Origin: Nitrospirota bacterium
GTDB lineage: Bacteria > Nitrospirota > UBA9217
DNA: 64,000 nucleotides
Direction: 5' to 3'
Assembly: GCA_963749655.1 (NCBI GenBank)
Contig: CAVVOB010000013.1
Span: 128,001-192,000 of the forward strand
The position numbers and the translations under genes are program-made. Below, in pieces: positions 9,222-29,854 of the stretch (position 1 is the first letter of the stretch; every line of letters starts with the position of its first letter). The notes under the pieces were generated by a model. It had not been told where the DNA came from. It saw nothing but the letters and a program-made list of their open reading frames with translations, and searched no databases.

Positions 9222-9224
9222 GCA

Positions 9225-9346: not shown

Positions 9347-11197
9347 ATGAACAAAAATAAAATTATTCTCCTTCCAACTTTACTGTTGAGTATCATTCTC
9401 GTTTATTCAACTTATGGAGAGGCTCAGAGTACTGAAAGCCTGCCCCAGACAAAAAGTGAGAATGGCCGCTGGGGACTTATTGATCATAGCGGAAAATTTA
9501 TTCTTGAGCCAAAGTATGAAGAAATCAGATTGTTCAGCAATTGGATCGACAACGGCAGGGTGTGGATTAAAACAAACAATAAATGGGGCTTATTTGACCT
9601 TAAGGGAAAAATCATCGTCCCACCCACGTATGATAATGTTTCCAGTATCCAGGCTAATTATGACTATGCAGAGATTACACTGGCAGGCAATCACGGCCTT
9701 ATCACTCAAACGGGCAAGATTCTTGTGGAACTGCAATATTCTTCCTTACGCGTATTCGACGATGGCATGATAGAGGTTCGGACGCATGACGGCAAAAGAG
9801 GTTTTATTAATCAACAGGGTAAGATTATCGCTGCTCCTGTTTACGATCTGGTTCTGGATTATCAAAACCATATTAAGAGAGTGCAAAAGAACCAGCGATG
9901 GGGGTTGATCAAGGATGACGGACGCATCATTGTTCCCACCCTCTATTCGGCAATATCGGAACCGGTAGACAATGTTTCGCGCGTCAACATGAGCGGTAAG
10001 TGCGACTGGGAGGGTTATTGTGAGGGCGGGAAATGGGGTCTGATTGACGTAAAGGGGACGACCATCCTTGAACCCAAATACAATTACATAGACGATTTTC
10101 ATGACGGGCTCGCGACCGTTGTGATAAACGGCAAGTGGGGCTACTTGAATACCAGGGGCAATCTCGCAATAGCTGCAAAATTCGATGCAGCAAATGATTT
10201 CGATAATGGACACGCATCGGTCACCTATCGCGACGAAGCGGGTTACATTGACAGGAGCGGGACCTTTGTCAGGAGCTTTAACGAGAACCACTACGTCGGC
10301 TCAATCGATAACAGGATCGGCTTCTACATGTACTTAACGATGAAAGCAGGCGCTGTTTCAGGGCGATACTTCTATTTAAATCAAAAACGACCGATCACAG
10401 TACAGGGTAAAATCAATCCTGACGGATCGTTCGATTTGGAAGAGAAGTATGAGGGCAAGATCAGCGGAAAATTTCAAGGTACCTTCTCTGCAGCCTTTGA
10501 CAAGGCCGGCGGCGAATGGTTCGCGCCAAAGGGGAAAAAGAAATTACCATTCATTCTGCAGCAGGTGTCCCGGTTTACCGGCATGAACACATTTCGGAAT
10601 GTTCACGGTTTTCTTTATTTTTACCTTGAAAACCCGGAACTCCAGAAGACGGTCAATGCAATGCTCAGCAAGATCACGAAGGGAACTTCGCGTTTTCTTA
10701 TTCAGAGTAAGAACGATTTGGACAACATGGGCTGGCTGCTCGGGACCGAAGAAGAGTCATCGATCAATTCATCCGAATATAACGCAGACTATAAATCAAA
10801 TACGCTGATCAGCATCCATTACACGGATTATATGGAGGGAGGAGCTCACCCGAACACAGCGTACGCTTCGTTAAACCTGCGGTTTAATAATGGCCGGGTC
10901 TATGACATTTCCCTCGATGATCTCTTCCGGCAGGATGCAAATTACCTGCAGGTGATAATGGGTTACTGTGCAAGTAATTTAAAGGAACAAGGGGCCAGTG
11001 ACGCTATAGTAGGCCATATCCCCGCCTTGTCTGAAAAGCTCGACGTCTTTAATATTGAATCCTCAGGGATTAAATTTTCTTTTGCACCCTATCAAGTTGG
11101 TTCATATGCCGAGGGGTCTTATTTTGTTTTAGTTCCGTATAACGTCTTAAAAGGACTGATCAGGCTTGACGGGCCGCTTAAGGATGTCATCAAATAA
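9347..11197 (+). CDS. Secreted WG-repeat protein with C-terminal RsiV/DUF3298-like domain
   Basis: Signal peptide and repeated (K/R)WG(L/Y)I(D/N)xxG units. C-terminus has GGAHPN...SLDDLF...FAPYQVGSYAEG. Visibly more AT-rich than its neighbours. Confidence 0.82.
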   Translation: MNKNKIILLPTLLLSIILVYSTYGEAQSTESLPQTKSENGRWGLIDHSGKFILEPKYEEIRLFSNWIDNGRVWIKTNNKWGLFDLKGKIIVPPTYDNVSSIQANYDYAEITLAGNHGLITQTGKILVELQYSSLRVFDDGMIEVRTHDGKRGFINQQGKIIAAPVYDLVLDYQNHIKRVQKNQRWGLIKDDGRIIVPTLYSAISEPVDNVSRVNMSGKCDWEGYCEGGKWGLIDVKGTTILEPKYNYIDDFHDGLATVVINGKWGYLNTRGNLAIAAKFDAANDFDNGHASVTYRDEAGYIDRSGTFVRSFNENHYVGSIDNRIGFYMYLTMKAGAVSGRYFYLNQKRPITVQGKINPDGSFDLEEKYEGKISGKFQGTFSAAFDKAGGEWFAPKGKKKLPFILQQVSRFTGMNTFRNVHGFLYFYLENPELQKTVNAMLSKITKGTSRFLIQSKNDLDNMGWLLGTEEESSINSSEYNADYKSNTLISIHYTDYMEGGAHPNTAYASLNLRFNNGRVYDISLDDLFRQDANYLQVIMGYCASNLKEQGASDAIVGHIPALSEKLDVFNIESSGIKFSFAPYQVGSYAEGSYFVLVPYNVLKGLIRLDGPLKDVIK

Positions 11198-15000: not shown

Positions 15001-16836
15001 TCATTTCGGCATTTTAGGGCTGCTTTCCACGTAGTTTCTGATCTCCTCGATAAACTCCCTGCCGTACCGCTCAAGCTTGACGTCCCCCACGCCCGAGATC
15101 TGCCGCATCTCCGACTCGCTCGTCGGAAAATGCGTGCACATCTCGCGAAGCGTTTTGTCAGAGAAGATCACAAAGGGCGGAACCTCCTGCTCTTCTGCAA
15201 ACTTTTTTCTGATCATGCGGAGTCGCTCAAAAAGAGTTCTGTCGGAACTGCTGAGATCGCCGATCTGCTTGCGCCTGCCTTTTGTTTTTGCTTCTTCCCG
15301 CTTGAGCCCTGATATCTGCTCCTGTCCTGTAAGCTGCGCCGCCCCTTTTGGCGTCAATTTCAGCACCGGGTAGCGGTCCCCGTCCTGCCTGATCATTTCC
15401 TGGGCCAGCAATTCGTCAACGATGAACCGCCAGTGCATCTTGTCATGATGTTTCCCGGCTCCGAAGGTCTTGATCTTGTCATGACCCAGTTCCCTGATGC
15501 GCCTGGTGTCCGCTCCGATGACGATGTCGACGATATGCCCGATGCCGAACCGTTCGCTGGTCCGTGCCATGGCTGACATGATTATCCTGGCGTCCATGGA
15601 GATGTCTACCTGCTTGACCAGGCCGGTGCAGATATCGCAGGTGCCGCAATTGTCCCCGGGGTAAACTTCCCCGAAAAAGGCGAGGAGCTGTTTTCGCCTG
15701 CATACGTTATGGGAGGCGAACCGTACGGTCTGATTCAGCTTCTCCATGGCGATCGCCCGTTCGTGCTCGTCCTGCACCTGGTCGATGAAATACCGTATTT
15801 TCGGGATGTCGCCCCTGCTGAAATAGAGCAGGCAATGGGCAGGTTCTCCGTCCCGTCCCGCGCGTCCCGTTTCCTGGTAATAGCCCTCGATATGGCGGGG
15901 CAGATCGGCATGGACCACGAACCGGACGTTCGATTTGTCGATTCCCATGCCGAAGGCGATAGTTGCCACGATCACGGACACCTCGTCGCGGTTAAAGGCT
16001 TCCTGGTTCTTCTCACGCTTCTCCGCAGGCAATCCCGCATGGTAAGGGAGCGCCTTGATGCCGTGGGAAGCGAGAAAAGCAGCTGTTGTATCCACCGAGT
16101 CGCGCGTGGTCCGGTATATGATCCCTGCTTCATTCCCGCGGTCTTTGACAAATGCCAGGAGCTGCTCTTCAACTCCTGATTTGGCCTCCACCTGGTAGAA
16201 GAGGTTCGGCCGGTTGAAGGAGGCGCGGACCACCTGGGGCTTTCTAAGCCCTATCTTGCTGATGATGTCCTGCTGGACCTTTTGTGTTGCCGTGGCAGTG
16301 AAGGCTGCGACAGGAATGCCGGGAAAGTGCGTGGGAATGGCGGAGAGTGCGAGATAATCGGGCCGGAAATCGTGTCCCCATTCCGATATGCAGTGCGCTT
16401 CGTCGATAGCGAACAGCGCGATAGGGATGGCTTTCAGCGTGTCCATGAACTGCGGCATGGCAAAGCGTTCCGGCGCGATATAAAGGATCCTGATCCGGTT
16501 GCTCTTGAGCTCGAGGTACAGGTCTGTAATTTCCTTCTGTTCAAGAGAGCTGTTCATGAACGCGGCAGCGATACCATTCTCCTTTGCTGCGTCCACCTGG
16601 TCCTTCATGAGCGAGATAAGAGGGCTGATCACAACGGTTGTACCCTGCAGAAGGAGCGCCGGCAGCTGATAGCAGAGGGACTTCCCTCCGCCGGTAGGCA
16701 TGACTGCGAAGACATCCTGCTTATTCAGGATCGCGCTGATGATCGTTTCCTGGTTCGGGCGGAAAGATTCAAAGCCGAAGACCGTGCGGAGGGTATGGAA
16801 AACGGCAGATTTGTCTGGAGGTGTGCGGGTATCCAT
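15001..16836 (-). CDS. recQ: DNA helicase RecQ
   Basis: PTGGGKSLCYQ, DEAHCISEWGHDFRP, AFGMGIDK, QETGRAGRDG, Zn-binding Cys cluster, RQC and HRDC domains. ATG at 16836. Confidence 0.96.
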   Translation of the reverse strand: MDTRTPPDKSAVFHTLRTVFGFESFRPNQETIISAILNKQDVFAVMPTGGGKSLCYQLPALLLQGTTVVISPLISLMKDQVDAAKENGIAAAFMNSSLEQKEITDLYLELKSNRIRILYIAPERFAMPQFMDTLKAIPIALFAIDEAHCISEWGHDFRPDYLALSAIPTHFPGIPVAAFTATATQKVQQDIISKIGLRKPQVVRASFNRPNLFYQVEAKSGVEEQLLAFVKDRGNEAGIIYRTTRDSVDTTAAFLASHGIKALPYHAGLPAEKREKNQEAFNRDEVSVIVATIAFGMGIDKSNVRFVVHADLPRHIEGYYQETGRAGRDGEPAHCLLYFSRGDIPKIRYFIDQVQDEHERAIAMEKLNQTVRFASHNVCRRKQLLAFFGEVYPGDNCGTCDICTGLVKQVDISMDARIIMSAMARTSERFGIGHIVDIVIGADTRRIRELGHDKIKTFGAGKHHDKMHWRFIVDELLAQEMIRQDGDRYPVLKLTPKGAAQLTGQEQISGLKREEAKTKGRRKQIGDLSSSDRTLFERLRMIRKKFAEEQEVPPFVIFSDKTLREMCTHFPTSESEMRQISGVGDVKLERYGREFIEEIRNYVESSPKMPK

Positions 16837-17037
16837 GGGCTCTCTTTTCAAAAAAAGGACGTTACGACAAAAAATATAAAAGGCTTTTCTCGCGCAAAGC
16901 CGCAAAGTCGCAAAGAACGACAAGACATGATATGCATGAGTGAGCGCAAAGTCAAGCGACGTTGTGATACGTTGACTTATTCCAGGCGCAATGGTATAAG
17001 CAGGGCATACCGTGGAAGACTGATTGGGAATAGCTAA

Positions 17038-17565
17038 ATGACGAATAAATCAAAAATCAAGATTGCTGTCAGCTCCTGTTTGCTCGGCAACAACGTCCGC
17101 TATGACGGCAACAGCAGGCTGGATCAGTATATCCTCGACAGGTTCGGCTCGTTCGTTGATTGGGTGCCGGTCTGTCCCGAGGCCGAGTCCGGCATGCCGG
17201 TACCGCGGGAGCCGATGCAGCTCGTCGGAGATGCTGCAAAGCCGCGCCTGATAACGATCAACACGAAAATAGACCGCACGGAAGAGCTTACGCGCTGGAT
17301 TGGAATCAAACTGCAGGAGCTGGAGCAGGCGGGCATCTGTGGGTTCATTCTGAAGGCGCGATCGCCGAGCTGCAGCGTTCACGATGCGGAGTTCTTTTCT
17401 TCTGAAAGTGGATCCCTGGGGAGGAGGGCCGGGTTGTTTGCAGAAGCTATTACGATCAGGTTTCCGGCCTTGCCTGTCGAGGATGAAGAGGCGCTGCGGG
17501 ATCGCGAAATTCTGGAAAAGTTTATCAAGCGGATCAGGGGTGAATATTGGAATCAGACGCCATGA
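17038..17565 (+). CDS. DUF523 (2-thiouracil desulfurase-like) protein
   Basis: VSSCLLGxNVRYDG, VCPE, PRE and LKARSPSC motifs. Confidence 0.88.
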   Translation: MTNKSKIKIAVSSCLLGNNVRYDGNSRLDQYILDRFGSFVDWVPVCPEAESGMPVPREPMQLVGDAAKPRLITINTKIDRTEELTRWIGIKLQELEQAGICGFILKARSPSCSVHDAEFFSSESGSLGRRAGLFAEAITIRFPALPVEDEEALRDREILEKFIKRIRGEYWNQTP

Positions 17566-17638
17566 GGAAGAAGTATGCTTTTGTGTATGTATGACTTCCG
17601 GCAGGGATATTGTTAATTATTTTTAGAGTCTTTCTGCC

Positions 17639-17704
17639 GTCATGCCGGACTTGATCCGGCATCCAGGAGCTAGAAGACTGGATTCCCGCCTTCACGGGAA
17701 TGAC
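17639..17704. repeat. GTCATTCC-type palindromic repeat, copy 1
   Basis: gtcatgccggacttgatccggcatccag...ctggattcccgccttcacgggaatgac. Other copies at 24851 and 37436. Confidence 0.82.
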
Positions 17705-17755
17705 GATTTATTTATCTGCAGTCAAGGTTCTCGATAAGGCACTGCCGAATAATTC

Positions 17756-19507
17756 CTACGACCTGCCCCGGTTCGATGTTACCGTGCTGACGCGGGGCAG
17801 GCAGCTCGGGGAGCCGAAGAACAGCTTCAGGATGTTCGGCACCTTCAACTTCCATCCGCTCACGGGCCAGTCGAGCTCATGCTTCCCGCAGAGGGAATCC
17901 AGAGTGTTCAGTCCGAAGATCTCCTCGCGCAGGGATTCATCGACATTGTCCGGATCGGTTATCATCCCGCTCAAACGTATCGCCCGCTGAAGATGGTTCC
18001 TGACCCGGTCCGCGCTTCTCCCCCCGATGACACCGTAGCGCTCCTTGATATCCAGGAGCGCCAGCGCACCGTCGTAAGTGGCCCTCACGATATCGTCCCG
18101 CGTCATCCACTTCGTTTCATAGTTCAAGGTGAACTTCCAACTCGGCATGAGCATCGCCTTTCTGTGCTCTGCGAGCGTGCGATAGAAGAAACGGTAGCCG
18201 TATCGTTCGGGGTCCTCGAAGATGCCGCTTCCGGGGTCGATGAACGGCGCCAGCGGCGCCAGCAGGGGAAGCACCTTGCCGGTCGAGCCGTTGCTGCCGT
18301 ACCGCGCCAGGAGCGAGCCGCAGTACTTTACCGTCTCCATGACCGACGAGTAGTCCTGATAGGGAAGGCCGACCATGAAGAAGAGGTCGATCCGCTTGCA
18401 TCCTGCGTCGATCAGCGACTGGATCATGTTTTCCAGGGCTTCGTTCTCGTAGTTCTTGCCGAAGGTCCTGCGTACATTGATGTCGTGGGACTCCGGCGAG
18501 ATCTCCACGTTGAAGGTCTCGATGCTGTCTGCCACCTTATGGATCACCTCCTCCGGAGGAGGGCTGAAAAACTCGATGCAGATCTCGTTCTTGATCCGGT
18601 ATTTCTTAACGGCGTCGAGGAACCGGTCGCAGTACTCCCGCCCCGCCTGGAGCAGGTCCCCCAGGACCATCACCGGCGCGCCGGTGTACTCCGCAATGCG
18701 GTGAATATCGTCGGCGACCCGCTCGGGAGACCGGAAGCAGGGCTTCGACCGCGCGCAGACCTTTTGAAAGGCCGAGATCGATCCGCCGCAGGTGCCGCAG
18801 TTGTGATTGCACCCCCGCACCGAGAAGACCGCGGTAACGGGGTAGTTGAGCCAGTACTTGAAGGGAATATAACCCGAGGGATCGAAGTACTTGACCGCCA
18901 TCTTGAGCAGATGGGGATAGTCGAAATCCACGTAGTCGAGGTTCTCGGGCTTGAAGGACCGCTCATTGACCACGGTGCGGCCTTTCCCGTCGCGCCACAC
19001 CAGGTTGGGCACCTCTTCATAGCCCGATCCCCTGCTGATTGCCTTAAGGAGCAGCCGGAGCGGCTCTTCCGTGGATTCGCCGCAAACGATGAAATCGACG
19101 AAGGAGTAGTCCCTCATGATCTCCTCGTGGTAATAGGTGGAGGTCAGGCCGCCGAGAATGACGGGCTTGTCGGGATGATGCTTCTTCACCAGGGCCGCGA
19201 GGCTCAGGCTGCCGTCCACGTGGGGCATCCAGTGCAGATCGATGCCGAAGGCGCCGGCATTCAGGTTCTTGATATAGGCTTCGGGATCAAAGGAGCGCGA
19301 GCGGAGCATCCGGAGGGCCAGGTTGACGATCCGTACGGACATCCCGTGCCGGGTCAGGTAATCGGACATCGTGAGGAACCCGATGGGATAGATCTCGAAA
19401 ATCGACGACGACGGCACGACGTCGCTCACGGGCCCGAAGAAAAGGGGCAGTTCGCGGAACCGGAACACGCTCGGCGGATGGATGAGCAGCAGGTCAGGCC
19501 TGGACAT
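17756..19507 (-). CDS. B12-binding radical SAM protein (resembles TIGR04190/Ta0216 family)
   Basis: N-terminus DLLLIHPPSV..FGPVSDVVPSS.IFEIYPIGF, GIDLHW, ILGG and CxxxCxxC (CNHNCGTC). Confidence 0.85.
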   Translation of the reverse strand: MSRPDLLLIHPPSVFRFRELPLFFGPVSDVVPSSSIFEIYPIGFLTMSDYLTRHGMSVRIVNLALRMLRSRSFDPEAYIKNLNAGAFGIDLHWMPHVDGSLSLAALVKKHHPDKPVILGGLTSTYYHEEIMRDYSFVDFIVCGESTEEPLRLLLKAISRGSGYEEVPNLVWRDGKGRTVVNERSFKPENLDYVDFDYPHLLKMAVKYFDPSGYIPFKYWLNYPVTAVFSVRGCNHNCGTCGGSISAFQKVCARSKPCFRSPERVADDIHRIAEYTGAPVMVLGDLLQAGREYCDRFLDAVKKYRIKNEICIEFFSPPPEEVIHKVADSIETFNVEISPESHDINVRRTFGKNYENEALENMIQSLIDAGCKRIDLFFMVGLPYQDYSSVMETVKYCGSLLARYGSNGSTGKVLPLLAPLAPFIDPGSGIFEDPERYGYRFFYRTLAEHRKAMLMPSWKFTLNYETKWMTRDDIVRATYDGALALLDIKERYGVIGGRSADRVRNHLQRAIRLSGMITDPDNVDESLREEIFGLNTLDSLCGKHELDWPVSGWKLKVPNILKLFFGSPSCLPRVSTVTSNRGRS

Positions 19508-20138
19508 GGGTGAGGTTGCCTCCGAAGATCTTGCTCGAGTATTCGGCGACCATGTCTTTTGACACGGTTTCCATGATGTCGAAGAGAGTGTCGGCCACGA
19601 AATCAACGGCCGTGTTGAAGGGCGGGAAGAGCCTGATCGAACGGCTCAGCAGCCGCGTTTCCTGATTATAGAGATGAAGGATTTCACACAAAACTACTTC
19701 GAACGCTTTTTCCGGGTACGCTGCACGCACGGCGTCGCCGAACGGCAGACCGTCCTTCCACTGGGCGAGAATGCCGTGGACCGCGCCGAACAAACGGACG
19801 ATACGCTTCTTCCTTACATCAGCGATGTCCTCGTAGCGCACGGTTATGGAGAGCGAGGGGATGGCGAGGTGCTTGACGAAGAGGCGGTCCACCTTTTTTG
19901 TTTCCTCAAATACAGCGTCCACGTCGAGCTCCCTGCCCGCGGCAAAAGACTCCCCCGCATGCTCGATGATCAGACGGTCCTTCTCCACCTCTTTTTTGAC
20001 GTTGGCATCCAGGTAGGCGCCGACGAAGGGAAGCCGGGCTGCGCTCAGGGAGCGTCCCGTCATCCGGTCCAGGGACCGCTTGCTGAATTCTGTGAGCATG
20101 ATCCTGTCTTTTTCACAGAGCAGGGCAATTCTGTCCAT
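19494..20138 (-). CDS. Hypothetical helical protein, translationally coupled to the radical SAM gene
   Basis: GAGGTG RBS and a 14-nt overlap with the radical SAM start. Confidence 0.72.
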   Translation of the reverse strand: MDRIALLCEKDRIMLTEFSKRSLDRMTGRSLSAARLPFVGAYLDANVKKEVEKDRLIIEHAGESFAAGRELDVDAVFEETKKVDRLFVKHLAIPSLSITVRYEDIADVRKKRIVRLFGAVHGILAQWKDGLPFGDAVRAAYPEKAFEVVLCEILHLYNQETRLLSRSIRLFPPFNTAVDFVADTLFDIMETVSKDMVAEYSSKIFGGNLTHVQA

Positions 20139-20221
20139 CGTGCACCTCTGCGCGGAAATCCTGCGGCATCATTGCCGGCGCATTGTCTTTCTGAAGACTC
20201 GATCCTGTGTGGTACCCCGTG

Positions 20222-20929
20222 TCAGCGGGGTTTCACTGCCCGGTAAATGGTGGCGATCCCCATGGTGAGGGAATCGACGGTGACATCCTCATATCCGCAT
20301 GACAGAATGAGATCCTTGAACTCGTCCGGCGGATAAAAGGCGTTGATGGAGCGGGGCAAGTACAGATAGGGCGCTGCCGTCTTGACGACCGCCTTGCCGA
20401 TCATCGGCATGATCCGGAAGACATACCATTCATACAGCATGCGGAACCAGTGCGATCCCGGCTTGGTCAGCTCAAGGCAGACAAAAACGGCGCCGGGCTT
20501 CAGGACCCGCCAGAGCTCCTTCAGGGCAAGCGAGGTGTCCGGAATGTTTCTCATGCCGAAGGCGACGGTCACCGCGTCGAAGGTGTTTTCCCGGAAGGGG
20601 ACCTGTTTTGCATCGGACAGGACAAAGGAAATGTTCCGAAAGCGGCCGGCGGTCTTTTTACGGGCGCGCTTGAGCATTTCCTCGCAGAAGTCCGCGCCGG
20701 TCACCGTTCCGTCCTCGCCAACCTGGTTGGACAGGAGCATGGCCAGTTCACCGGTTCCGGTGCAGACATCGAGCACGCGGTCGCCCCGATGGATGCCCGA
20801 GTTGACCACGGCGCGCCTGCGCCAGAAGTGGTCGAAGCCGAAGCTGAAACTGCTGCTGAGCAGATCGACGTAGGGCGCGACGGTGGAGAAAATATTTTTT
20901 ATGAAGAGATCACGCTGCTCCAGTGACAT
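20222..20929 (-). CDS. ubiE: Ubiquinone/menaquinone biosynthesis methyltransferase UbiE/MenG
   Basis: IFSTVAPYVD..SFGFDHFWRR, VLDVCTGTG, FDAVTVAFGMRN, RVLKPG and YLYLPRSI. Confidence 0.85.
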   Translation of the reverse strand: MSLEQRDLFIKNIFSTVAPYVDLLSSSFSFGFDHFWRRRAVVNSGIHRGDRVLDVCTGTGELAMLLSNQVGEDGTVTGADFCEEMLKRARKKTAGRFRNISFVLSDAKQVPFRENTFDAVTVAFGMRNIPDTSLALKELWRVLKPGAVFVCLELTKPGSHWFRMLYEWYVFRIMPMIGKAVVKTAAPYLYLPRSINAFYPPDEFKDLILSCGYEDVTVDSLTMGIATIYRAVKPR

Positions 20930-21035
20930 GATTCGCCTTTCGCTGTAAATGCGCCCGGCGTACCCGCCGTCATGACGCTTCTGTATTTTCCGGTCTGCCC
21001 TGTCCGTCTCAGGTCCAAGGTGGTGAATCCATAAC

Positions 21036-21153
21036 TGATGAGTCGTAAGAAGTCAAGATTTGCCACAAGAGGCACAAAAAGCACAAAAAGAGTTTTTGAA
21101 AAATTAAACTTTTGTGACTTCTGTGGCTAAAAAAACTTTTTACGAAATCATCA
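21036..21153. repeat. MITE-like element with terminal inverted repeats and an internal palindrome
   Basis: tgatgagtcgtaagaagt / actttttacgaaatcatca ends with internal gccacaaga...tctgtggc. TAAC flanks both sides. Confidence 0.65.
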
Positions 21154-21156
21154 TAA

Positions 21157-21972
21157 CTAGTACACGAACTGCCCCAGAATGATCAGCACCAGCAGCAGGA
21201 ACCCGGCAGCCACGACCGCGAACCCGAAGATGATCCCCATGTCCGTTATCCAGTTCTTCTGCGGCTCCACCATGAGCCGGTCCATCTGCCGTTCTTCGGT
21301 CAGGCGCTGATACTCCAGCGGCCGTTCGTGCTGCAGTTCATGAACACTGACGGCCCCCGTGAAGATGACGGGATCCATCGGGAATTTTTCCGGCCGCATA
21401 TGAGTGTTGAAAAAGTGGATCGTGAAAATAAAGCCCGCCGCGAGGAGCGCCTCGTCGCTGTGGATGACCGTGGCGATGTTGAACACCCAGCCCGGGAAAA
21501 AACGGCCGAAGAACTCCGGGAACCAGAGGAACAGCCCCGACACGCCGATCATTCCCACGCCCCAGAATACGGCCCAGTAGTCGAACTTTTCCCAGTAGGT
21601 CCACCGGTCGAACTGCGGCTTCGGCCCCATCCCGAGGAACCACTTGAAGTTGTTGTAGATGTCTTCGAGGTCCTTGAGCCAGGGCACCATGGACTCGGGG
21701 CCGAGGGGGTTGAACCGCATTTTCCGGACAACCACGATATTGTGCAGGACATAGGCGATATGGGCCGCGAAGTACCCGAAGGTGAGGACCGCGCAGATGC
21801 GGTGGATGAGGGCCGCGCCCTGGTAGCCTCCTTCAAGCCCTACGAGCCAGGCCGCCCACGGCGCCTGGGCGTACTTGATCGGCATGCCCGAGGCAACGAG
21901 GCCGATGAAGCTGAGGGCCATGACCGCGTGCAGGACGCGGTGGTAAGCGTTGAACCGTCGTACCTGTGCCAT
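21157..21972 (-). CDS. Di-heme cytochrome b (FdnI/HydC-like, CbcL C-terminal-like)
   Basis: HRVLH, IHRICA, WTYWEKFDYWAVFWG, IHSDEALLA..FIFTIHFFNTHMRPEKFPMD. Confidence 0.88.
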   Translation of the reverse strand: MAQVRRFNAYHRVLHAVMALSFIGLVASGMPIKYAQAPWAAWLVGLEGGYQGAALIHRICAVLTFGYFAAHIAYVLHNIVVVRKMRFNPLGPESMVPWLKDLEDIYNNFKWFLGMGPKPQFDRWTYWEKFDYWAVFWGVGMIGVSGLFLWFPEFFGRFFPGWVFNIATVIHSDEALLAAGFIFTIHFFNTHMRPEKFPMDPVIFTGAVSVHELQHERPLEYQRLTEERQMDRLMVEPQKNWITDMGIIFGFAVVAAGFLLLVLIILGQFVY

Positions 21973-21973
21973 A

Positions 21974-22957
21974 TTATTCGCCCCCTTTCTTTGTCATACG
22001 TTCTTTCAGCGCGCGATAGGCCCAGAGGAACGTATGGATAAAGAAGAAGGTGAACACGCCGATCAAAAGCGTCGTCATGAACAGGAAGGTGTAGTAGAGA
22101 ATGGGGTATTTCTCCCGGTTGCCCTCTTCCCCGTGAGCGTAGAACTTCGTGAATCCCCGCGTCGCGTGGGCATGGCATTTTTTGCACGTGGCGAGGATAT
22201 TGTGCTGCGCCAGCGGCGACAGGCGGTCGGCGACGGAAACGATCGCATGGGACCCGTGGCAGTCAGCGCATTTCGCCATGGTGGCATAGCCGAGCTCCGT
22301 CACCTTGCCGTGGTAGGTCTTATGATAGGTCTTCATCTGCTCCTGGTGGCAGTTGCCGCATTGCCGGATGAGCGAAAGCTTCCACCGGTCGGTGACTGTC
22401 GGGGGTGCCAGGTGCTCCAGGTGGCAGTCAAAGCAGGTGGGCGCCTTCAGCGTCAGGTCGAGCTGGAGCGCCGTGGCGTGGATGCTGGTCCGGTATGCCT
22501 CATACTCGGCAGGATGACACTGCGAACAGAGAGCAGGGATCTTCTTCCTGTTCGTAGCCGAACGCGTGTCAGCGGAGGGGTAAATGGCATGCGACCCATG
22601 GCAGGTCTGGCACGTCGGCGCCGCGCCATTTCCCGCCGCGGCTTCTTTCCCGTGCACGCTCAGCTTGTACTGCTGAGCCTGCTCTTTCGGGGCGCCTTCG
22701 TTGCCCGTGAAGTGGCAGATGCCGCAGTTCACCTTCGCCGTCTTCCCGTGGGGATATTCCGTTATCCCGAGATGGCATTTGGCGCAGGCCAGGTGTCCGT
22801 GAACCGATTGCTCCAGTGCGGCGCGGTCGACATACCCCTTCGAGCCCTTCTGGCCGTGACAATCGTAACAGATATTCTGTGCGAAAGCGGCGAGGGGGAA
22901 GAGGAGGCAAAGGAACAGGAAAAAAAGTATTAGACGTTTCTTGCCAGGGCAATGCAT
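21974..22957 (-). CDS. Membrane-anchored nine-heme cytochrome c (CbcL N-terminal-like)
   Basis: Signal peptide, nine CxxCH motifs and a C-terminal TM helix with FFFIHT. Confidence 0.9.
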   Translation of the reverse strand: MHCPGKKRLILFFLFLCLLFPLAAFAQNICYDCHGQKGSKGYVDRAALEQSVHGHLACAKCHLGITEYPHGKTAKVNCGICHFTGNEGAPKEQAQQYKLSVHGKEAAAGNGAAPTCQTCHGSHAIYPSADTRSATNRKKIPALCSQCHPAEYEAYRTSIHATALQLDLTLKAPTCFDCHLEHLAPPTVTDRWKLSLIRQCGNCHQEQMKTYHKTYHGKVTELGYATMAKCADCHGSHAIVSVADRLSPLAQHNILATCKKCHAHATRGFTKFYAHGEEGNREKYPILYYTFLFMTTLLIGVFTFFFIHTFLWAYRALKERMTKKGGE

Positions 22958-23130
22958 GGCTAAATTGTAGCAAAGAATATCAGACTGTCAAGGTAGAGAA
23001 AAAAAGTTGTCAAATGTTGAGCACGGGCGGACAGTTGGCAGACTTCTCAATTCTGAAAATCGCGAGAAACGCAGGACTCCGGCAGTTTTTCATACGTAGT
23101 TATACTAAGGAAGCGGAAACGGCTTTGTTC

Positions 23131-23205
23131 ACCGCAGAGACGCAGAGGCGCGGAGGAACCGTTCAGTTATAAAATTTTTTCTCAGCGTCTCAGCGCATCT
23201 GCGGT
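23131..23205. repeat. Palindromic repeat with 9-bp tandem arms
   Basis: accgcagagacgcagaggcgcggag ... ctcagcgtctcagcgcatctgcggt. Confidence 0.75.
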
Positions 23206-23270
23206 AAGTTTTTTGCGCGCAGAACGCTGCTGGTGTTCATATCGTGTCGTCTGAGAGCTAATGATCCTGT

Positions 23271-24701
23271 CTACCTGATGATATCCGCCGTGAAGGAATA
23301 GAGCTGCGCGTCTTTCCAGGCGTCCTTGGGCAGGCCTGCCTTGATCGAGACCTGCTCAAGGAACGTCGGCACGTCCCAGTGATATTCCTCGGCAACCTGG
23401 GGGAGGAGGATGCCGCTGTTCCATCCCTTTACCAGGTAGAGTCCGTGCGTCCCGATCCTGATGTTTTTAACGTCCAACAGGAGTTCGAGGGGAGAAAGGA
23501 CTGTGACCTCGACGGACATATCGTTCAGCTCCTGAGGCGTCATGGGTTCGAATCGCGGGTCGCGGGAGCAGGCCGAGACTGCGTTCGTGATGACGGACTT
23601 GAACAGCGGCATGACGGGTTCGATGTTCCCGATGCAGCCCCGCAGGCGCCCGCTGCGATTGATCGTGACAAAGACGGCCCCGTTGGCCGCGAGACGGGCG
23701 TCTTTCGGTTCGAACTGCGGCGTCTTGCCGTGCTTCACATAGCTTTCTATCGTTCGTCTGGCAAGAGCGAGAAGCTCCCGTTGCTGTTCTGCTGTGAGCG
23801 CGCTTTTGTACAGGCCCAGCGCCGCATATCCCACGACCCGGGTACGGTCATTTGTCACATCGCCCGAGTTCGCCGCGTTGAACAGCACGCCGTTGGTTGC
23901 GCCGAGCCTCCGGGCCGCTGCCATGGCAACGAGCACCGCGTACCCGCCGCACATTTCACCCTCGCTGCTCCGGAGGCGCTGCTCCAGGTCTTCCACCGAC
24001 ATCCTGGCCACGGCGTTGGTGACCGTTCCGTCCATTTTTTTCGCTGTTCTGTAATCGTGATAATGGGAGAGGTCCGTGCTCGCGATGATGATCGTCTTCG
24101 GATTTTCAGCGACAATCGACGTAAGGCTGCGGATCAGGGAGTCGAAGGATTCCTGTGTGGGGCGGCCGATCAGGACAGGCACTATGGTGAAGCGCGTCAG
24201 CGTGCGCTGAAGGAACGGCAGCTGCACCTCGATCGAGTGCTCCTTTTCAAAGGCCGAGGTTGACGCCGTGACGCCTGCTTTCGGGTCGATGAGCTTTTTC
24301 GCGAGCCGGTCGTTGATCTTGATCGTTCCCAAAGGGGTCCGCATGCCGCCTGACGCATACACGACAGCGCCGTTCACCTCGGCGTAATGGCTCGGTCCGA
24401 TCAGTATAACCGTATCGACCGGCCGTTCCTGCAGATGGCGGTACGCATAGGCCGCGACCTGTCCGGAATACTGGTACCCGGCATGGGGCGCGATCAGGGC
24501 GATGAGCTTCCCTTCCACGGGGGTCGTCTTTGCGCGGGACAGGAAATCGTCGACCATGGCGGTAAGCGCCTGTTTGTCCGCGGGATAGAAGGCCCCGGCA
24601 ACCGCGGGCTCCTTGACGGTCCCGCCGGCGCCCACAAGCAGGACGGTCAGGACCAGGAGAATGGACAGCAATGCAGCTCCGACAAGGTGCTTACGCTTCA
24701 T
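23271..24701 (-). CDS. amrB: AmmeMemoRadiSam protein B (Memo) fused to protein A (AMMECR1), with N-terminal signal or anchor
   Basis: PAVAGAFYP, PHAGYQYSG, EHSIEVQLPFLQ, STDLSHY and MCG, then GAVFVTI..LRGCIG, DPRF, LLPQVA and KAGL. Confidence 0.92.
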   Translation of the reverse strand: MKRKHLVGAALLSILLVLTVLLVGAGGTVKEPAVAGAFYPADKQALTAMVDDFLSRAKTTPVEGKLIALIAPHAGYQYSGQVAAYAYRHLQERPVDTVILIGPSHYAEVNGAVVYASGGMRTPLGTIKINDRLAKKLIDPKAGVTASTSAFEKEHSIEVQLPFLQRTLTRFTIVPVLIGRPTQESFDSLIRSLTSIVAENPKTIIIASTDLSHYHDYRTAKKMDGTVTNAVARMSVEDLEQRLRSSEGEMCGGYAVLVAMAAARRLGATNGVLFNAANSGDVTNDRTRVVGYAALGLYKSALTAEQQRELLALARRTIESYVKHGKTPQFEPKDARLAANGAVFVTINRSGRLRGCIGNIEPVMPLFKSVITNAVSACSRDPRFEPMTPQELNDMSVEVTVLSPLELLLDVKNIRIGTHGLYLVKGWNSGILLPQVAEEYHWDVPTFLEQVSIKAGLPKDAWKDAQLYSFTADIIR

Positions 24702-24828
24702 CTTTTCTCCTCCAGAACCTGGCGGGCTTGTCCTGCTCCTTGGATTTTATCTTTTTTGCAAGAAAACTGATGATGCCGCCTGCGAGGAAGAATCCGAGGA
24801 AGCTCCTTCGTGATATGGTGTCCTTCAT
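24691..24828 (-). CDS. 45-aa twin-arginine (Tat) signal micro-protein, absent from the ORF track
   Basis: Hand translation gives MKDTISRRSFLGFFLAGGIISFLAKKIKSKEQDKPARFWRRKDEA*. GAGG RBS, and the ORF overlaps the amrB start by 11 nt. Confidence 0.75.
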   Translation of the reverse strand: MKDTISRRSFLGFFLAGGIISFLAKKIKSKEQDKPARFWRRKDEA

Positions 24829-24850
24829 TGTTCGCCTCTTTTCAAGGGCC

Positions 24851-24922
24851 GTCATTCCGGGCTTGACCCGGAATCCAGTGGCTTTTCGCTAAGTCCTGGA
24901 TTCCTGCTTCCGCAGGAATGAC
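24851..24922. repeat. GTCATTCC-type palindromic repeat, copy 2
   Basis: gtcattccgggcttgacccggaatccag...ctggattcctgcttccgcaggaatgac. Confidence 0.82.
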
Positions 24923-25006
24923 GAGCGATAGGGGTATATTGTTAACCCTCAATTCTCCGCAGCTTACTGCGGAGAGGTATTAGTAGCTTGCAACAAAGCC
25001 CCTTCT

Positions 25007-25981
25007 TCATCCCCACACTCCCGCGATCTTCATGCCGCAGAACCTGCATTTTCCCGACGCGATGTTGTTCTGCTTCACGAAATATCCGGTCCGCTCGATG
25101 ACGATCTTTTTGCAGCGCGGGCAGAGGGTGTTCTCTGCGTCGCTCCGCACATTGCCGATATAGACAAAGCGGAGTCCGGCGTCGAGGGCGGTTGTTCTGG
25201 CGTTTTTCAGCGTCTCGACGGGCGTGGGCGGCAGGTCCTTCAGCTTGTAACCCGGGAAGAACCGGGAAAAGTGAAGCGGCACGTCATTCCCGAGGTTCTT
25301 CACGATCCATTTGCACATGTCGCGGACCTGCGACAGGTTATCGTTCAACGTGGGGATGACCAGGTTCGTGACCTCGAGCCACACCTTGTCCTCCCTGAGC
25401 TGTACGAGGGAGTCCAGAACGGGTCTGAGCCTGCCGCCGCATATTCTTGCGTAGAAGTCCTCGGTAAAGGCCTTCAGGTCCACGTCGGCGGCATCGAGAT
25501 ACCTGGCGAGTTCGTGGAGCGGTTTTTTGTTGATGTACCCGCAGGAATGCATCGTGTTGTTGATGCCGTATTGGCGGGCGATTACCGCGGTGTCGTACAT
25601 GTATTCGTAGAACACCGTGGGTTCGGTGTAGGTGTAGGTGATTGTCCTGCACTGGTAGAACAGCGCCTGGCGGACGACATCCGCGGGAGGAAGGTCCCGG
25701 GAATCCACGTCCTCGGGGTTCGCCTGCGAGATCTCCCAGTTCTGGCAGAACTTGCAGCCCAGGACGCATCCTGCCGTTGCGATCGAAAAGGCGGTAGTTC
25801 CGGGATGGAAATGGAAGAAAGGCTTTTTTTCGATGGGGTCGATGGCCACGGCGCAGGGCTTCCCGTACACAAGGCTGTACAGTGTCCCGCCCTTGTTTAT
25901 CCTGGTCCTGCACCCGCCGATCTGAAATTCCTCGAGCACGCATTCGGTGGGGCAGAGTTCGCATTGGACTGTTTTCGCCAT
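25007..25981 (-). CDS. amrS: AmmeMemoRadiSam radical SAM enzyme, short at the N-terminus
   Basis: CELCPTEC, DPIEKKP, GCVLGCKFCQNWEISQ, YTYTEP, LHFSRFFP, YIGNV and a C-terminal Zn ribbon. Confidence 0.93.
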   Translation of the reverse strand: MAKTVQCELCPTECVLEEFQIGGCRTRINKGGTLYSLVYGKPCAVAIDPIEKKPFFHFHPGTTAFSIATAGCVLGCKFCQNWEISQANPEDVDSRDLPPADVVRQALFYQCRTITYTYTEPTVFYEYMYDTAVIARQYGINNTMHSCGYINKKPLHELARYLDAADVDLKAFTEDFYARICGGRLRPVLDSLVQLREDKVWLEVTNLVIPTLNDNLSQVRDMCKWIVKNLGNDVPLHFSRFFPGYKLKDLPPTPVETLKNARTTALDAGLRFVYIGNVRSDAENTLCPRCKKIVIERTGYFVKQNNIASGKCRFCGMKIAGVWG

Positions 25982-26544: not shown

Positions 26545-27771
26545 TCATCGACCTGCAGGGCCGTGCTGAAAACAGCGGTTGCAGCGGATGCACTCGGAAA
26601 CAGCCGGATTCGGCTTGTTCGCCACGGGACAATCGGCGCCGCTCGGATATCCCCTTGCCTCTCTTGACAAGGCGCCGGTCAGCGCGGCCACAGGACAAAG
26701 ATACCGGCACCAGAACCGTTCGATGCGCAGGTTCGCGGCAAGGGCAATAACGACGAGGGCCCATGTTAACGCTGTACCGTTGAAGGAAAAGAGCGTCACG
26801 TAGGCCTCGTAGTTCCCGTAGTCCGCGCTGCTGCCTGTGAACGCCAGAACAACGGCGAGGCCGAGCAGGCCATATTTCAAGGTTCTCGCACGGCCGTCCA
26901 GTTCGGGCGGGATTTCCCATTTGCGGAAAGGCAGCCTGCTTATGAACTCGGACAAAGCGCCGAAGGGGCAGAGCCAGCCGCAGTAGAACCTTCCTGCCAC
27001 GATGATAGACGCGAAGGTGCTGATAACGAGCACATACCACAGCATCGACGACGACGGCCTCAGGAGGACAAGGTTAAAGACGTGAATGACGGAGAAGGGG
27101 GCGGAAAGATATAAACCGACGATGATGACGGAAGAGGCCAGGCTGAGGTCCCTCAGCGTCTGAAACTTCCGCGATCGCCGCGTAAGAACATATCCCGCTG
27201 CAGCGGCGATGAACAGGCCTGCGTACCACAGCCAGGCGGTTTCGCGGCGGCCTGTGCCGGCCGGTCCGGAACTGATGCCGAGGACGTCCCTTGCCGCGGT
27301 GCGCGAGGACTCCCTGACCGTATCAGCCAGGGCTTTAACGCTCACCGTGGCGCGGGTGATCCCATCGATGTCGCGGTCCACCTCGAAGGGATCGGTCACG
27401 CTCTTCCCGATGAATTGGCTGAGATAGGACGGAAGCTCGAGATAGCGGACGTAATTCTTCGTCTCCCGGTGCTCGATGATCCTGAGGCCGGCGATCATTC
27501 CCTCGCGGCTCAGGACGACCATGACCTTGATCGGACCTGCATATCCCCTGATCTGCGGCACGATGTCATGGGAGTTGAAGGCGACAGCTCCATCCCCGGA
27601 GCGATAGACCGGTGGGCTGCCCTGCTTCTCTGCAAAACGCGAGTCAGGAGCAGCGATCTTGAGAATACTGCGTTCATCGGGCGCAGGCGCCATGAGGCGG
27701 GACCGGACAAGGTGGCCCGTGATCAGCGAACAGAGGGCAAGGGCTGTAAGGAGGATTCTAATTTTTTTCAT
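26545..27771 (-). CDS. NosR/NirI-like membrane protein with FMN-binding and 4Fe-4S-binding domains
   Basis: GYAGPI, DIDGITRATVS flavinylation-like motif, two CxxxCP (CGWLCP, CRYLCP) and C-terminal CIRCNRC. Confidence 0.82.
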   Translation of the reverse strand: MKKIRILLTALALCSLITGHLVRSRLMAPAPDERSILKIAAPDSRFAEKQGSPPVYRSGDGAVAFNSHDIVPQIRGYAGPIKVMVVLSREGMIAGLRIIEHRETKNYVRYLELPSYLSQFIGKSVTDPFEVDRDIDGITRATVSVKALADTVRESSRTAARDVLGISSGPAGTGRRETAWLWYAGLFIAAAAGYVLTRRSRKFQTLRDLSLASSVIIVGLYLSAPFSVIHVFNLVLLRPSSSMLWYVLVISTFASIIVAGRFYCGWLCPFGALSEFISRLPFRKWEIPPELDGRARTLKYGLLGLAVVLAFTGSSADYGNYEAYVTLFSFNGTALTWALVVIALAANLRIERFWCRYLCPVAALTGALSREARGYPSGADCPVANKPNPAVSECIRCNRCFQHGPAGR

Positions 27772-29854
27772 GGCCCAGGACCATCAGCAGCACCAGCGAA
27801 GACGCTTTCAGCGCAATCAGCGACAGGATCGCATTCCCGACTCCGAGAAGGGGCACGAAGAGTATGGATGCGGAGAGGGCTCCGAGAACGGCGCCTCCCA
27901 GGTCCACGGCATAGAGCCGCCCCGCATGCTCTCCCGGCTTCGCGCCTCCGATCAACCGGCTTATGAGCGCGAACTGCATCCCGGCCATGGCGCCGCAGAG
28001 GAGGACCATGACGTAATAGAACAGCTCGAGGGTGAAGAAAAGCGGCGCCACAAGAAGCAGCAGCAGTGAGGCCACGTCCAACGCCTGGACCCACGACTGC
28101 GATCGTTTCAGGAACCGGGCCCCGGAAGCGCCGGCCGCCGTGCCTGCCATGAAGAGGGCAGAGAGGATGCCGATCCGTTCGTAGACATAGCCGAACGACG
28201 CCTGATACATAAGCAGGACAGCCACGTTGAACGCCATGGCGAAGTAGCCGGTGGTGAAAAGGCTGTAATAGAACGTACGCTGTTTTCTCCAGAACAGGAC
28301 AACAGCCGTCAGGAGCAGTGCGGCAAAGGCCGTCAAGACGGGAACTTCGCCTGCGCCGACGATGCTGTTCAGGAACGCGCCGCCGTGCGTCTCCGTCCAG
28401 AGCATGAGGTTGTACAGGTAGGCGACCGGCCTGCGGTCCCTGTTGAGCGTGTCGACCGCGCCGAGCCGTGCAGCGACCATGTCCGTTTTCATCGGGTCGA
28501 AGATGTCCTTGAAGATAAGGGGGTAGAAGTATTCGGTCTGCACGCCCCGTGCGGAAAATCGCATCGCAAGCTCGTCAGGGTCCGCCTTCAGGGGCCTGTC
28601 CGAAGCGTACATGCCTCCGTATTCCTCGGAAGAGAGCGCCACGGTCGGGAAGACCGCCTTCAGCGAGCGGTAAATGGACCCGTTGGCGGCCTGCAGACGC
28701 CGTCCGATGTAGCCGTGGGACGCGGGCAGGGTCAGGGCGAGGACGCCGCCGGGGTTCAGGATCGCGCGGGCCTCGCGGAAAAATTCCACGGTATAGAACC
28801 TGTTGAGATTGGCGGTCGAAGGCTCGGGCAGGTTCAGGATCACGATATCGTACCGTGCTTTTGCAGCCGACCTGACAAAGGACCGCGCGTCCTGCACATT
28901 GACCTTCAGCCGTTTGTCGCCCAGCCGTTCCCGGTCCTCGCGGGTCAGGATGCTGAAGCAGAGGTCGATCATTTTGGGGTCGATCTCGACGAAGTCGACC
29001 TCCACCGCCGGATACTTCAGCAGCTCCCGCGCAACGGCCGCGGACCCGCCGATCAGCAGCACCCGGCCGGGCGACTCATGGAGCGACATCGGCACGTGGG
29101 CCCGCAGTTCCTCGGTCTGCTCATCGGGATAGGAGAACGCGAACCTGCCTGAGGTGAAAAGATTGAGCTGGTCGTCGGAATCGTAGAGCGCGAGCTCTCC
29201 ATACTTCGATTCCACGCGCTGAACCAGATCGAGGTCCTGTTCGGGCGCGTTCTCGACGATCGTCGTGGCCGCAACATGAAAAAGCAGGGGGATGACCAGG
29301 AACAGGAACCTCCGTTTTTTCTTCAGCAGCACGATCGTGAGCAGGATGTTCACGAAGCTGACTGCGGCGACAAGAGCGAAGGCATTGACGTTTCCGGCGA
29401 ACAGCACGGTAAAGAACAGGCCTCCGAGAAAAGAGCCCGCTGCCTCCAGGCCGTAGGTCCTGGCGGTGTCGCCTTTCAGGAAAGCCACGGCCAGCGGAAA
29501 CTGGGTGCCGATCATGAAGCAGACAGGGGCGAGGGCAAGAACAGTGGAGAGCACCGTGGTAGTCAGGGGGACCGTTTCGCCTGCTACCAGGCCGAAGACC
29601 GGGTGAATGAGGCTGATGAACAAGACGGAGGTTTGGGCCAGGAGAGCAACGCCGAAGAAGGAATACTCAAAAGCGTTTCTGTACCGGAACCTCCGGCCGA
29701 AGATGCTGCCGAGTCCGACGGCAAGGAGCCAGACCGCAAGGGTGATGCCGATGTCGAGCTCGTTCCCGGAGAAGACGGTCAAAAGCTGGCGCAAGGCGAT
29801 GATCTGCACCAGGATCGAGGTGAACCCCATTCCGAGAACAGCAAGGATGTTCAT
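27758..29854 (-). CDS. Fused membrane / spermidine-synthase-like SAM-dependent transferase
   Basis: TM bundles flank ESKYG, VLLIGG, FVEIDP, DARSF, YDIVILNLPEP and NRFYTVEFF. Confidence 0.85.
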   Translation of the reverse strand: MNILAVLGMGFTSILVQIIALRQLLTVFSGNELDIGITLAVWLLAVGLGSIFGRRFRYRNAFEYSFFGVALLAQTSVLFISLIHPVFGLVAGETVPLTTTVLSTVLALAPVCFMIGTQFPLAVAFLKGDTARTYGLEAAGSFLGGLFFTVLFAGNVNAFALVAAVSFVNILLTIVLLKKKRRFLFLVIPLLFHVAATTIVENAPEQDLDLVQRVESKYGELALYDSDDQLNLFTSGRFAFSYPDEQTEELRAHVPMSLHESPGRVLLIGGSAAVARELLKYPAVEVDFVEIDPKMIDLCFSILTREDRERLGDKRLKVNVQDARSFVRSAAKARYDIVILNLPEPSTANLNRFYTVEFFREARAILNPGGVLALTLPASHGYIGRRLQAANGSIYRSLKAVFPTVALSSEEYGGMYASDRPLKADPDELAMRFSARGVQTEYFYPLIFKDIFDPMKTDMVAARLGAVDTLNRDRRPVAYLYNLMLWTETHGGAFLNSIVGAGEVPVLTAFAALLLTAVVLFWRKQRTFYYSLFTTGYFAMAFNVAVLLMYQASFGYVYERIGILSALFMAGTAAGASGARFLKRSQSWVQALDVASLLLLLVAPLFFTLELFYYVMVLLCGAMAGMQFALISRLIGGAKPGEHAGRLYAVDLGGAVLGALSASILFVPLLGVGNAILSLIALKASSLVLLMVLGHEKN

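Follow-up and report, generated by a model that had tools for sequence, protein, structure and literature searches.

What does a B12-binding radical S-adenosylmethionine (SAM) protein do beside a menaquinone methyltransferase gene and a pair of cytochromes? The question is raised by a cluster of five genes in a 64,000-nucleotide stretch (hereafter the window) of contig CAVVOB010000013.1 (positions 128,001 to 192,000), from assembly GCA_963749655.1 of a Nitrospirota bacterium. The radical SAM protein belongs to TIGR04190, the Ta0216 family, and an earlier note on this DNA had suggested that it might be an alternative, cobalamin-dependent menaquinone methyltransferase feeding the adjacent complex. 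Gene order and gene fusions indicate that the tie between this family and menaquinone genes is real, recurring in several unrelated lineages and in fusion proteins. We consider it fairly probable that its members have a prenylquinone, or the precursor of one, as their substrate. Our full explanation, in which the radical SAM protein and a partner protein (here unk214) would form a menaquinone-tailoring unit, probably methylating, that serves the cytochrome complex, is offered tentatively and at a little less than an even chance. That the product would be a ring-methylated menaquinone is somewhat unlikely.

All five genes are on the minus strand and follow one another head to tail, behind a promoter-like site that sits immediately 5' of the cytochrome c start. 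The features are the following, in positions of the window.

22964 to 22991, minus strand: sigma-70-like promoter match, the likely operon start (TTGACA-16-TACAAT, 11 of 12 matches, TG present; a consensus match only)
21974 to 22957, minus strand: nine-haem c-type cytochrome of 327 amino acids (aa), with a signal peptide and a C-terminal membrane anchor (nine CXXCH; PF14522, PF14537)
21157 to 21972, minus strand: HydC/FdnI-type membrane cytochrome b, 271 aa (PF01292), starting 1 nucleotide (nt) past the cytochrome c stop
20222 to 20929, minus strand: MenG/UbiE demethylmenaquinone methyltransferase, 235 aa (TIGR01934, 230 bits)
19494 to 20138, minus strand: unk214, 214 aa, all-helical and soluble, of no known family (no Pfam or NCBIfam match), the constant partner of the radical SAM protein
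17756 to 19507, minus strand: TIGR04190 (Ta0216 family) B12-binding radical SAM protein, 583 aa from its likely start (TIGR04190, 629.9 bits)

The earlier description of these genes was borne out in every item: the strand, the order, the nine haems, the cytochrome b, menG/ubiE, the unknown protein and the overlapping radical SAM gene. The gap between the cytochrome b gene and menG (20930-21156) measures 227 nt here; among 16 related loci it is 4-7 nt long in 11 and 17-303 nt long in five. The genes menG and unk214 are spaced by 83 nt. An Rfam scan of 17000-24000 returned no riboswitch or other RNA, its sole match being a chance miRNA, and no match inside the gap. The best reading is that the five genes make up a single operon, in an anaerobic member of the Nitrospirota whose menaquinone is made through the futalosine pathway.

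The radical SAM protein scored 629.9 bits against the hidden Markov model (HMM) of TIGR04190 (B12_SAM_Ta0216; cut-off 500), over profile positions 1-516 of 554, and a scan of the genome bin gave the same outcome; this confirms the family assignment of the earlier note. Its longest open reading frame (ORF) spans 17756-19606 and would overlap the end of unk214 by 113 nt. The HMM match begins at residue 38 of this frame and an identical 583-aa database protein exists (P0001); thus, we placed the start at 19507, which reduces the overlap to 14 nt. Its B12-binding domain (PF02310, residues 70-180) precedes a radical SAM domain (PF04055, residues 263-428), and the cysteines of its CX3CX2C cluster motif (C233, C237, C240) are nearly invariant in two alignments (A1, A2). 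From this domain architecture we infer a cobalamin-type radical SAM protein, for which class B methyl transfer itself is only predicted. Weak HMM matches of 22-40 bits link it to the HpnP/HpnR, KedN5 and PhpK families, far below the cut-offs of those families, and there is also a weak match to BchE. It shows no HemN-family match and no HemN_C domain, and in this respect fails to qualify as a class C enzyme of the MqnK/MenK kind. Its profile, searched against the sequences of the PDB, matched nothing at E 0.001. In the literature, searched outside subscription journals and supplements, we found no paper linking TIGR04190 or any B12 radical SAM enzyme to menaquinone.

The genome bin measures 4.27 Mb (86.6% complete, 5.8% contamination), and its nearest protein relatives bear the labels Nitrospirota or Thermodesulfovibrionales. 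It encodes two VitK2_biosynth proteins, of the MqnA/MqnD class, and a single UbiA-type prenyltransferase. The presence of the MqnA/MqnD class and of MenG, together with no MenA being found in the bin, indicates that the host is a futalosine-pathway menaquinone producer. The clustered menG product (cut-off of TIGR01934, 158.35) is the only match over the cut-off in its genome. We also considered whether it is MpqE, the methyl-plastoquinone methyltransferase of Nitrospirota, and rejected this candidate, which scored 220.1 bits against NF052510 (cut-off 335). No class C MqnK/MenK candidate is visible in the genome, the only HemN_C protein being HemW (TIGR00539 321.6 bits, cut-off 205); this agrees with the idea of an alternative to MqnK/MenK.

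Within the family of the host, TIGR04190 was detected in 31 of 64 genomes, and it was not found in 24 genomes from eleven other families of the phylum. All 16 same-family loci fetched with long flanks keep the order cytochrome c, cytochrome b, ubiE, unk214, radical SAM; their flanks differ, one locus sharing those of the window. The gene for unk214 is present in 32 of the 64 genomes, namely all 31 with the radical SAM gene and one (G107) in which the cluster is frameshifted. In this last genome, which is in 7 contigs, the five-gene cluster is whole (L155, G107:C6:1831000-1846000), but ubiE and the radical SAM gene are split over several frames and the frame of unk214 runs across one TGA; decay or assembly indels are both possible. 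The other parts of the cluster come and go. Variants comprise ubiE-unk214-radical SAM (L153), both cytochromes followed by unk214-radical SAM with no ubiE (L157, L053), a cytochrome c remnant followed by unk214-radical SAM (L152), and the two cytochromes alone (L154, L156). MenG stands alone in family members that lack the pair, and one of these, 100% complete and devoid of the radical SAM gene (G024), keeps MqnA/D and MenG. The co-occurrence of unk214 and the radical SAM gene in 31 of 31 genomes, while cytochromes and ubiE are separable, indicates that the two are a functional unit. Since non-carriers keep MqnA/D and MenG, the same distribution marks this unit as accessory to menaquinone synthesis and not as a core step of it. 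In one protein (P0124), unk214 is fused to the radical SAM protein.

Conserved linkage to quinone genes, which had been set beforehand as a test of the proposal, thus holds in 16 of 16 same-family loci, and it recurs elsewhere in three forms. The first is fusion. An exhaustive search of representative proteins yielded two (P0123, P0159) in which Pfam places a UbiE/COQ5 domain at the C-terminus of a TIGR04190-type protein. A search with the UbiE part of P0123, limited to long proteins, found 15, seven of them with the radical SAM-UbiE architecture (clusters at 90% identity), some on contigs up to 208 kb and named, where a name is given, as Actinobacteria or Candidatus Aquicultor. Their UbiE domains are 47-76% identical to that of the query, which argues that the fusion has been kept through substantial divergence. 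Most other long-fusion partners of UbiE in that search are quinone-pathway enzymes: among the remaining eight proteins (P0277-P0284), five carry a polyprenyl synthase (PF00348) and one a chorismate-binding enzyme (PF00425), and two (P0279, P0280) have no quinone-pathway domain. Two single representatives are putative fusions of another kind, of a TIGR04190-type protein with TatC (P0122) and with PGA_cap (P0130).

The second form is proximity to MenG. A metagenome scan with P0123, covering 80 loci, placed MenG 0.8-2.3 kb downstream of the radical SAM gene in seven high-GC loci. In one of them (L176), MenG scored 233 bits against TIGR01934 and the radical SAM protein 589.7 bits against TIGR04190, and a divergent upstream amidohydrolase resembles 5'-deoxyadenosine deaminase or aminofutalosine deaminase, below both cut-offs. 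Proteins 75-90% identical to the radical SAM protein of this locus are labelled Eggerthellaceae, Raoultibacter, Candidatus Aphodovivens or Coriobacteriia.

The third form is adjacency to MenA and polyprenyl synthase genes. A scan for relatives, with one genome per species, confirmed at least 580, and 80 loci among the matches listed were examined. Proteins sampled from Thermoplasmata, Syntrophaceae, Bellilinea, a methanogen-like archaeon and further sources scored 636-682 bits against TIGR04190 at 41-50% identity, and are true members. Among the 80 loci, non-Nitrospirota members had no window-type ubiE, unk214 or cytochromes nearby (tblastn, E 1e-8), with the exceptions of a weak ubiE-like match about 7 kb off (L112) and a weak cytochrome c-like match (L118). 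Clustering of all adjacent ORFs and annotation of representatives revealed four recurrent contexts. In Aerophobetes, Lentisphaerales, Planctomycetota, Spirochaetota and one further bacterium, the order is MobA, MenA, long-chain polyprenyl diphosphate synthase, a second radical SAM protein and the TIGR04190 protein, often with SelB or an NrfD-type formate dehydrogenase close by; MenA (TIGR00751 129 bits, cut-off 102), the polyprenyl synthase and the second radical SAM gene adjoin it in Aerophobetes, Lentisphaerales, Planctomycetota and L095. A deltaproteobacterial locus (L061) has a HydC-type cytochrome b directly upstream of the radical SAM gene. Syntrophaceae and their relatives carry formate dehydrogenase, FdhE, an UshA-like protein, the radical SAM protein, SelA, a pseudouridine synthase and a YfiH-type protein. 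Anaerolineae have MoxR, the radical SAM protein and DUF58, or nothing recurrent.

Some of these contexts displayed further features. The second radical SAM protein, of about 300-325 aa, has its gene immediately upstream of the TIGR04190 gene in every locus with MenA or polyprenyl synthase (L077, L079, L080, L095, L101, L102). Its closest family is PTO1314, at 121 bits (cut-off 306), and its tail weakly resembles DUF3463/HpnH; the family names PTO1314 and TIGR04190 (Ta0216) both come from Thermoplasmatales genomes. The deltaproteobacterial locus encodes two diverged TIGR04190 copies (8914-10689 and 16782-18467) in opposite orientation, 6 kb apart, and the cytochrome b directly upstream of the first is a fusion protein of 409 aa. 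In the Syntrophaceae-type loci (L067-L076, L084, L086, L122; L181-L207), no more than about 50 nt separate the TIGR04190 gene from the SelA gene that comes after it. A single clade unites twelve archaeal, methanogen-like loci, and UppS lies directly upstream of the radical SAM gene in 8 of these 12. These UppS-bearing contigs (L229, L223 and six more) contain the methanogenesis marker 11 gene and a true TIGR04190 member (636 bits), and one of them (L229) encodes Fpo/Nuo-type subunits C and D about 2 kb downstream.

A FastTree tree of 166 family members drawn from the window, genome loci, metagenome loci and fusions (INDEPENDENCE; local support values only) was cut at tip height 0.75 into 20 clades. 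A ubiE, MenA or IspB gene is adjacent or fused in 32 of the 166 rows, spread over 7 of the 20 clades. A SelA or SelB gene adjoins the family member in 35 rows and 5 clades, a link as frequent as the one to quinone genes, to which we return below. Both figures are lower bounds, as many contigs are short.

Based on these findings, we propose that unk214 and the radical SAM protein would tailor menaquinone or a prenylated precursor of it. Most likely, a methyl group would be added to an unactivated carbon in the manner of class B enzymes, with methylcobalamin as donor and a 5'-deoxyadenosyl radical abstracting the hydrogen, while unk214 would hold or present the lipid substrate. The methyl site could be the naphthoquinone ring, giving methylmenaquinone, or the polyprenyl tail. 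An over-methylated quinone of lower potential would then serve the co-encoded cytochrome complex.

The cytochrome c has exactly nine CXXCH motifs, hydrophobic segments at residues 5-31 (N-terminal signal) and 284-314 (C-terminal anchor), and Pfam matches to Cytochrome_C7 (PF14522) and Cytochrom_c3_2 (PF14537); NCBIfam adds just a weak GSU2203-family decahaem match of 28 bits. The cytochrome b, of the Ni_hydr_CYTB/FdnI type, scored 33.8 bits against PF01292 (cut-off 30.1) and 39.6 bits, below the cut-off, against the formate dehydrogenase gamma family TIGR01583, and it has orthologues at 73-82% identity in 16 of 16 related loci. The nine CXXCH motifs and the PF01292 match identify the pair, by its architecture, as a split CbcL-like quinol:periplasm electron-transfer module (a nine-haem c and a dihaem b). 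The "CbcL-like quinol oxidase" proposed earlier is thus supported in its split form.

Meanwhile, unk214 displayed little resemblance to known proteins. It matches no Pfam or NCBIfam family even at E 10, and no SCP2 domain. An alignment of 24 orthologues, 39-56% identical to the window protein, has 22 invariant columns, mostly polar, and no cysteine motif. Its AlphaFold model is all-helical, with seven helices (pLDDT 85.5, pTM 0.84), for which Foldseek found nothing in the PDB at E 0.001 and the ESM Atlas offered no named cluster, the best score being 0.88 to hypothetical proteins. In VIA-align its neighbours reach Z 5.3-6.2, the best value of 6.2 being below the meaningful level for helical proteins; with that limit, terpene synthase or prenyl synthase alpha-folds make up roughly a quarter of the top 50, in alignments of about 150-170 residues. 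A comparison by hhalign with two polyprenyl-synthase-like neighbours showed no relation (probability below 1%). An isoprenoid-binding role of unk214, suggested by its model, is a lead and not a finding. The predicted complex of unk214 with the radical SAM protein scored 0.00, a result that gives no verdict and counts neither for nor against the partnership.

A number of observations weigh against the proposed function. In an even sample of 151 Anaerolineae genomes, each at least 85% complete, 54 carry TIGR04190. MenG is no commoner with it (39 of 54, 72%) than without it (71 of 97, 73%), so the co-occurrence with quinone genes that the earlier note led us to look for shows no enrichment there. 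Among the 15 Anaerolineae carriers that lack MenG, MenA scored over the cut-off in four and not in the other 11, and all 15 match the generic UbiA family PF01040, which is uninformative on quinones. The Anaerolineae pattern does not support a strict dependence on menaquinone. Outside the Nitrospirota core, 42 carriers include 27 with MenG, 7 with MqnA/D and 16 with MenA over the cut-offs; eight, both Thermoplasmata bins among them, have none of the three, in bins whose completeness is not known. Presence in such seemingly quinone-free genomes leans against a strict family-wide quinone tie. The two Thermoplasmata loci have no quinone gene nearby, and the connection of TIGR04190 with the thermoplasmaquinone of Thermoplasma stays a suggestion of the earlier note. 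No quinone gene is near the radical SAM gene in the largest clades, SelA being downstream in 29 of 33 Syntrophaceae-type rows and MoxR/DUF58, or nothing, being found in Anaerolineae, and UppS pairs with the radical SAM gene in the methanogen-like archaeal loci. Moreover, not every B12-domain radical SAM enzyme is a methylase, as BchE and HpnJ illustrate.

The Eggerthellaceae loci deserve the same caution. The genes for MenK and MenK2 are said to come from Adlercreutzia. In this genus of Eggerthellaceae, methylmenaquinone is the major quinone, according to one source (PMC8549271), and Coriobacteriia are counted among the few makers of (di)methylmenaquinone in another (10.1101/2025.09.17.676790). 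The coincidence is weakened because 8- and 7-methylation are already explained by the class C enzymes MenK and MenK2, expressed in Wolinella or assayed (PMC10114718), and with them ring methylation in Coriobacteriia. The earlier interpretation therefore stands in part: the linkage to quinone genes, the TIGR04190 assignment, the split CbcL-like parts and the lack of a visible class C candidate are retained, and the lack of MenG enrichment in Anaerolineae and the many members beside SelA, MoxR or UppS do not fit it.

A serious rival places the target elsewhere in the same metabolism: the enzyme would act on the polyprenyl chain or on a general polyprenyl lipid (the quinone tail, a polyprenyl phosphate or another isoprenoid) and not on the ring, and the menG linkage would reflect shared lipid metabolism. 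There are precedents for a lipid target in the class B hopanoid methylases HpnP and HpnR, and TIGR04190 bears a weak family similarity to HpnR and to B12 radical SAM proteins annotated with "lipid biosynthesis". A trans-polyprenyl synthase adjoins the radical SAM gene in L077, L080, L087, L095, L159 and L203; it flanks the gene in L087, and in L159 and L203 the radical SAM gene lies between a short HepT-like ORF and the full synthase. The cis-prenyltransferase UppS of the methanogen-like loci, the carriers without MenG or MenA and the terpene- and prenyl-synthase folds among the structural neighbours of unk214 point the same way. These fold matches, however, are below the meaningful level for helical bundles and hhalign shows no relation to polyprenyl synthases, while the UbiE fusions and the MenG adjacency indicate the quinone itself. 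We regard this rival as rather improbable.

It is likewise an unlikely explanation that the family has a housekeeping or otherwise unrelated role and meets quinone genes through accidental shuffling of operons among anaerobic respiration genes. The Anaerolineae counts, the MoxR/DUF58 contexts, the TatC and PGA_cap fusions and the SelA/SelB adjacency in 35 rows and 5 clades would all fit such a role. Our guess is that the SelA/SelB link is a remnant of formate dehydrogenase superclusters, such as those of L095 and L102, where formate dehydrogenase, MobA, MenA, polyprenyl synthase, two radical SAM genes and SelB occur together. Chance proximity, by contrast, would be expected in about 1% of cases, by a rough estimate that takes MenG, MenA and IspB among a few thousand genes and a distance within 4 kb, against the 32 of 166 rows and 7 clades observed, and an accidental fusion is hard to square with its retention across UbiE domains diverged to 47% identity.

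The pair could also mature the neighbouring cytochrome complex, at a haem or a protein residue, and leave the quinone untouched. B12 radical SAM enzymes acting on tetrapyrroles exist, among them BchE, to which the protein has its weak match; the pair adjoins both cytochromes without ubiE in L157 and L053, a cytochrome b gene precedes the radical SAM gene in L061, and L093 has cytochrome c, cytochrome b and radical SAM genes together. Yet the two systems separate in both directions: a cytochrome b orthologue (at least 64% identity) is absent from the pair-bearing genomes G118 and G121, where unk214 and the radical SAM gene occur without the cytochromes, and is present without the pair in G126-G128. 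The fusions, moreover, are to UbiE and not to cytochromes, and most family members have no cytochrome nearby, making this role very unlikely. Least probable of all is a non-methylating core step of menaquinone synthesis, such as a substitute for one futalosine-pathway step, to which MqnC not being found at E 1e-10 in the host bin (86.6% complete, so its absence is not shown) and the deaminase-like amidohydrolase of L176 might point, and which we rejected as the main reading because the gene occurs in just 31 of 64 family genomes and the complete G024 lacks it and retains the pathway markers.

The remaining genes around the cluster complete the picture of the locus. Directly upstream, 23271-25981 on the minus strand encodes a complete AmmeMemoRadiSam system, with a fused Memo-AMMECR1 protein of 476 aa (TIGR04336 and TIGR04335) and its radical SAM partner (TIGR04337, 375.6 bits). 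Among the 16 related loci, only L038 has it beside the cluster, to which it therefore probably does not belong. Further upstream (26545-29854, minus strand), a NosR/NapH-like membrane protein (FMN_bind and Fer4_5) overlaps by 14 nt a 698-aa protein with a spermidine-synthase-type domain in mid-chain. Downstream (15001-17565) are a RecQ helicase (TIGR01389 743 bits, minus strand) and a DUF523/2-thiouracil desulfurase protein (plus strand), ordinary neighbours that are not conserved with the cluster.

Returning to menaquinone tailoring as the preferred function, a tie to menaquinone would give a testable function to a large family of unknown function, present in at least 580 species-level genomes and in 54 of 151 sampled Anaerolineae. 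To our knowledge, only class C methylases are known in quinone biosynthesis; if our proposal is true, a class B enzyme would be added to it. The genomic prediction of methylated menaquinones is described as unreliable, and several rare quinones as lacking known enzymes, in a preprint (10.1101/2025.09.17.676790). In its widest form, which we consider unlikely, TIGR04190 and its partner would be a second, cobalamin-dependent route to over-methylated, lower-potential menaquinones in at least seven lineages. Among these would be the Eggerthellaceae of the human gut and Thermoplasmata (in which it might supply the thermoplasmaquinone synthase that is missing), and the route would be linked genetically to dedicated complexes that react with quinones, such as CbcL-like cytochromes, NrfD-type formate dehydrogenase and Fpo-like complexes. 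If so, anaerobes would tune their quinone pool to particular electron-transfer modules, which bears on how they, gut Eggerthellaceae included, set the redox potential of that pool.

The cluster is reminiscent of several known systems. In the E. coli operon the order is ubiE-ubiJ-ubiB, the methyltransferase gene being followed by that of a lipid-carrier accessory protein, and here too the quinone methyltransferase gene is directly followed by the gene for a small accessory protein that belongs to no catalytic family; unk214 differs in having no SCP2 or other Pfam domain, and its role as a carrier is our inference. The class B enzymes HpnP/HpnR, KedN5 and PhpK methylate unactivated carbons of lipids or natural products. 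Like TIGR04190, they have a B12-binding domain ahead of a radical SAM domain that bears CX3CX2C; TIGR04190 is set apart by scores far below their cut-offs and, in Nitrospirota, by a dedicated helical partner. Geobacter CbcL has, according to PMC6295460, nine CX2CH motifs within the N-terminal half of the protein, plus a HydC/FdnI-like dihaem b of six helices within the C-terminal half. Compared with this description of Geobacter sulfurreducens CbcL (GSU0274), and not with its sequence, the cytochromes of the window have the same parts in the same N-to-C order; they differ in being two polypeptides, a stop codon and 1 nt apart and split likewise in 16 of 16 related loci, and in having fewer predicted helices in the b subunit, by a crude scan. 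Finally, with MqnK, MenK and MenK2, the HemN-like class C enzymes that act at C8 or C7 of menaquinone (PMC10114718), TIGR04190 would share the outcome, an extra menaquinone methyl added as an accessory step after MenG. It differs from them in protein class, having an N-terminal B12-binding domain and no HemN_C.

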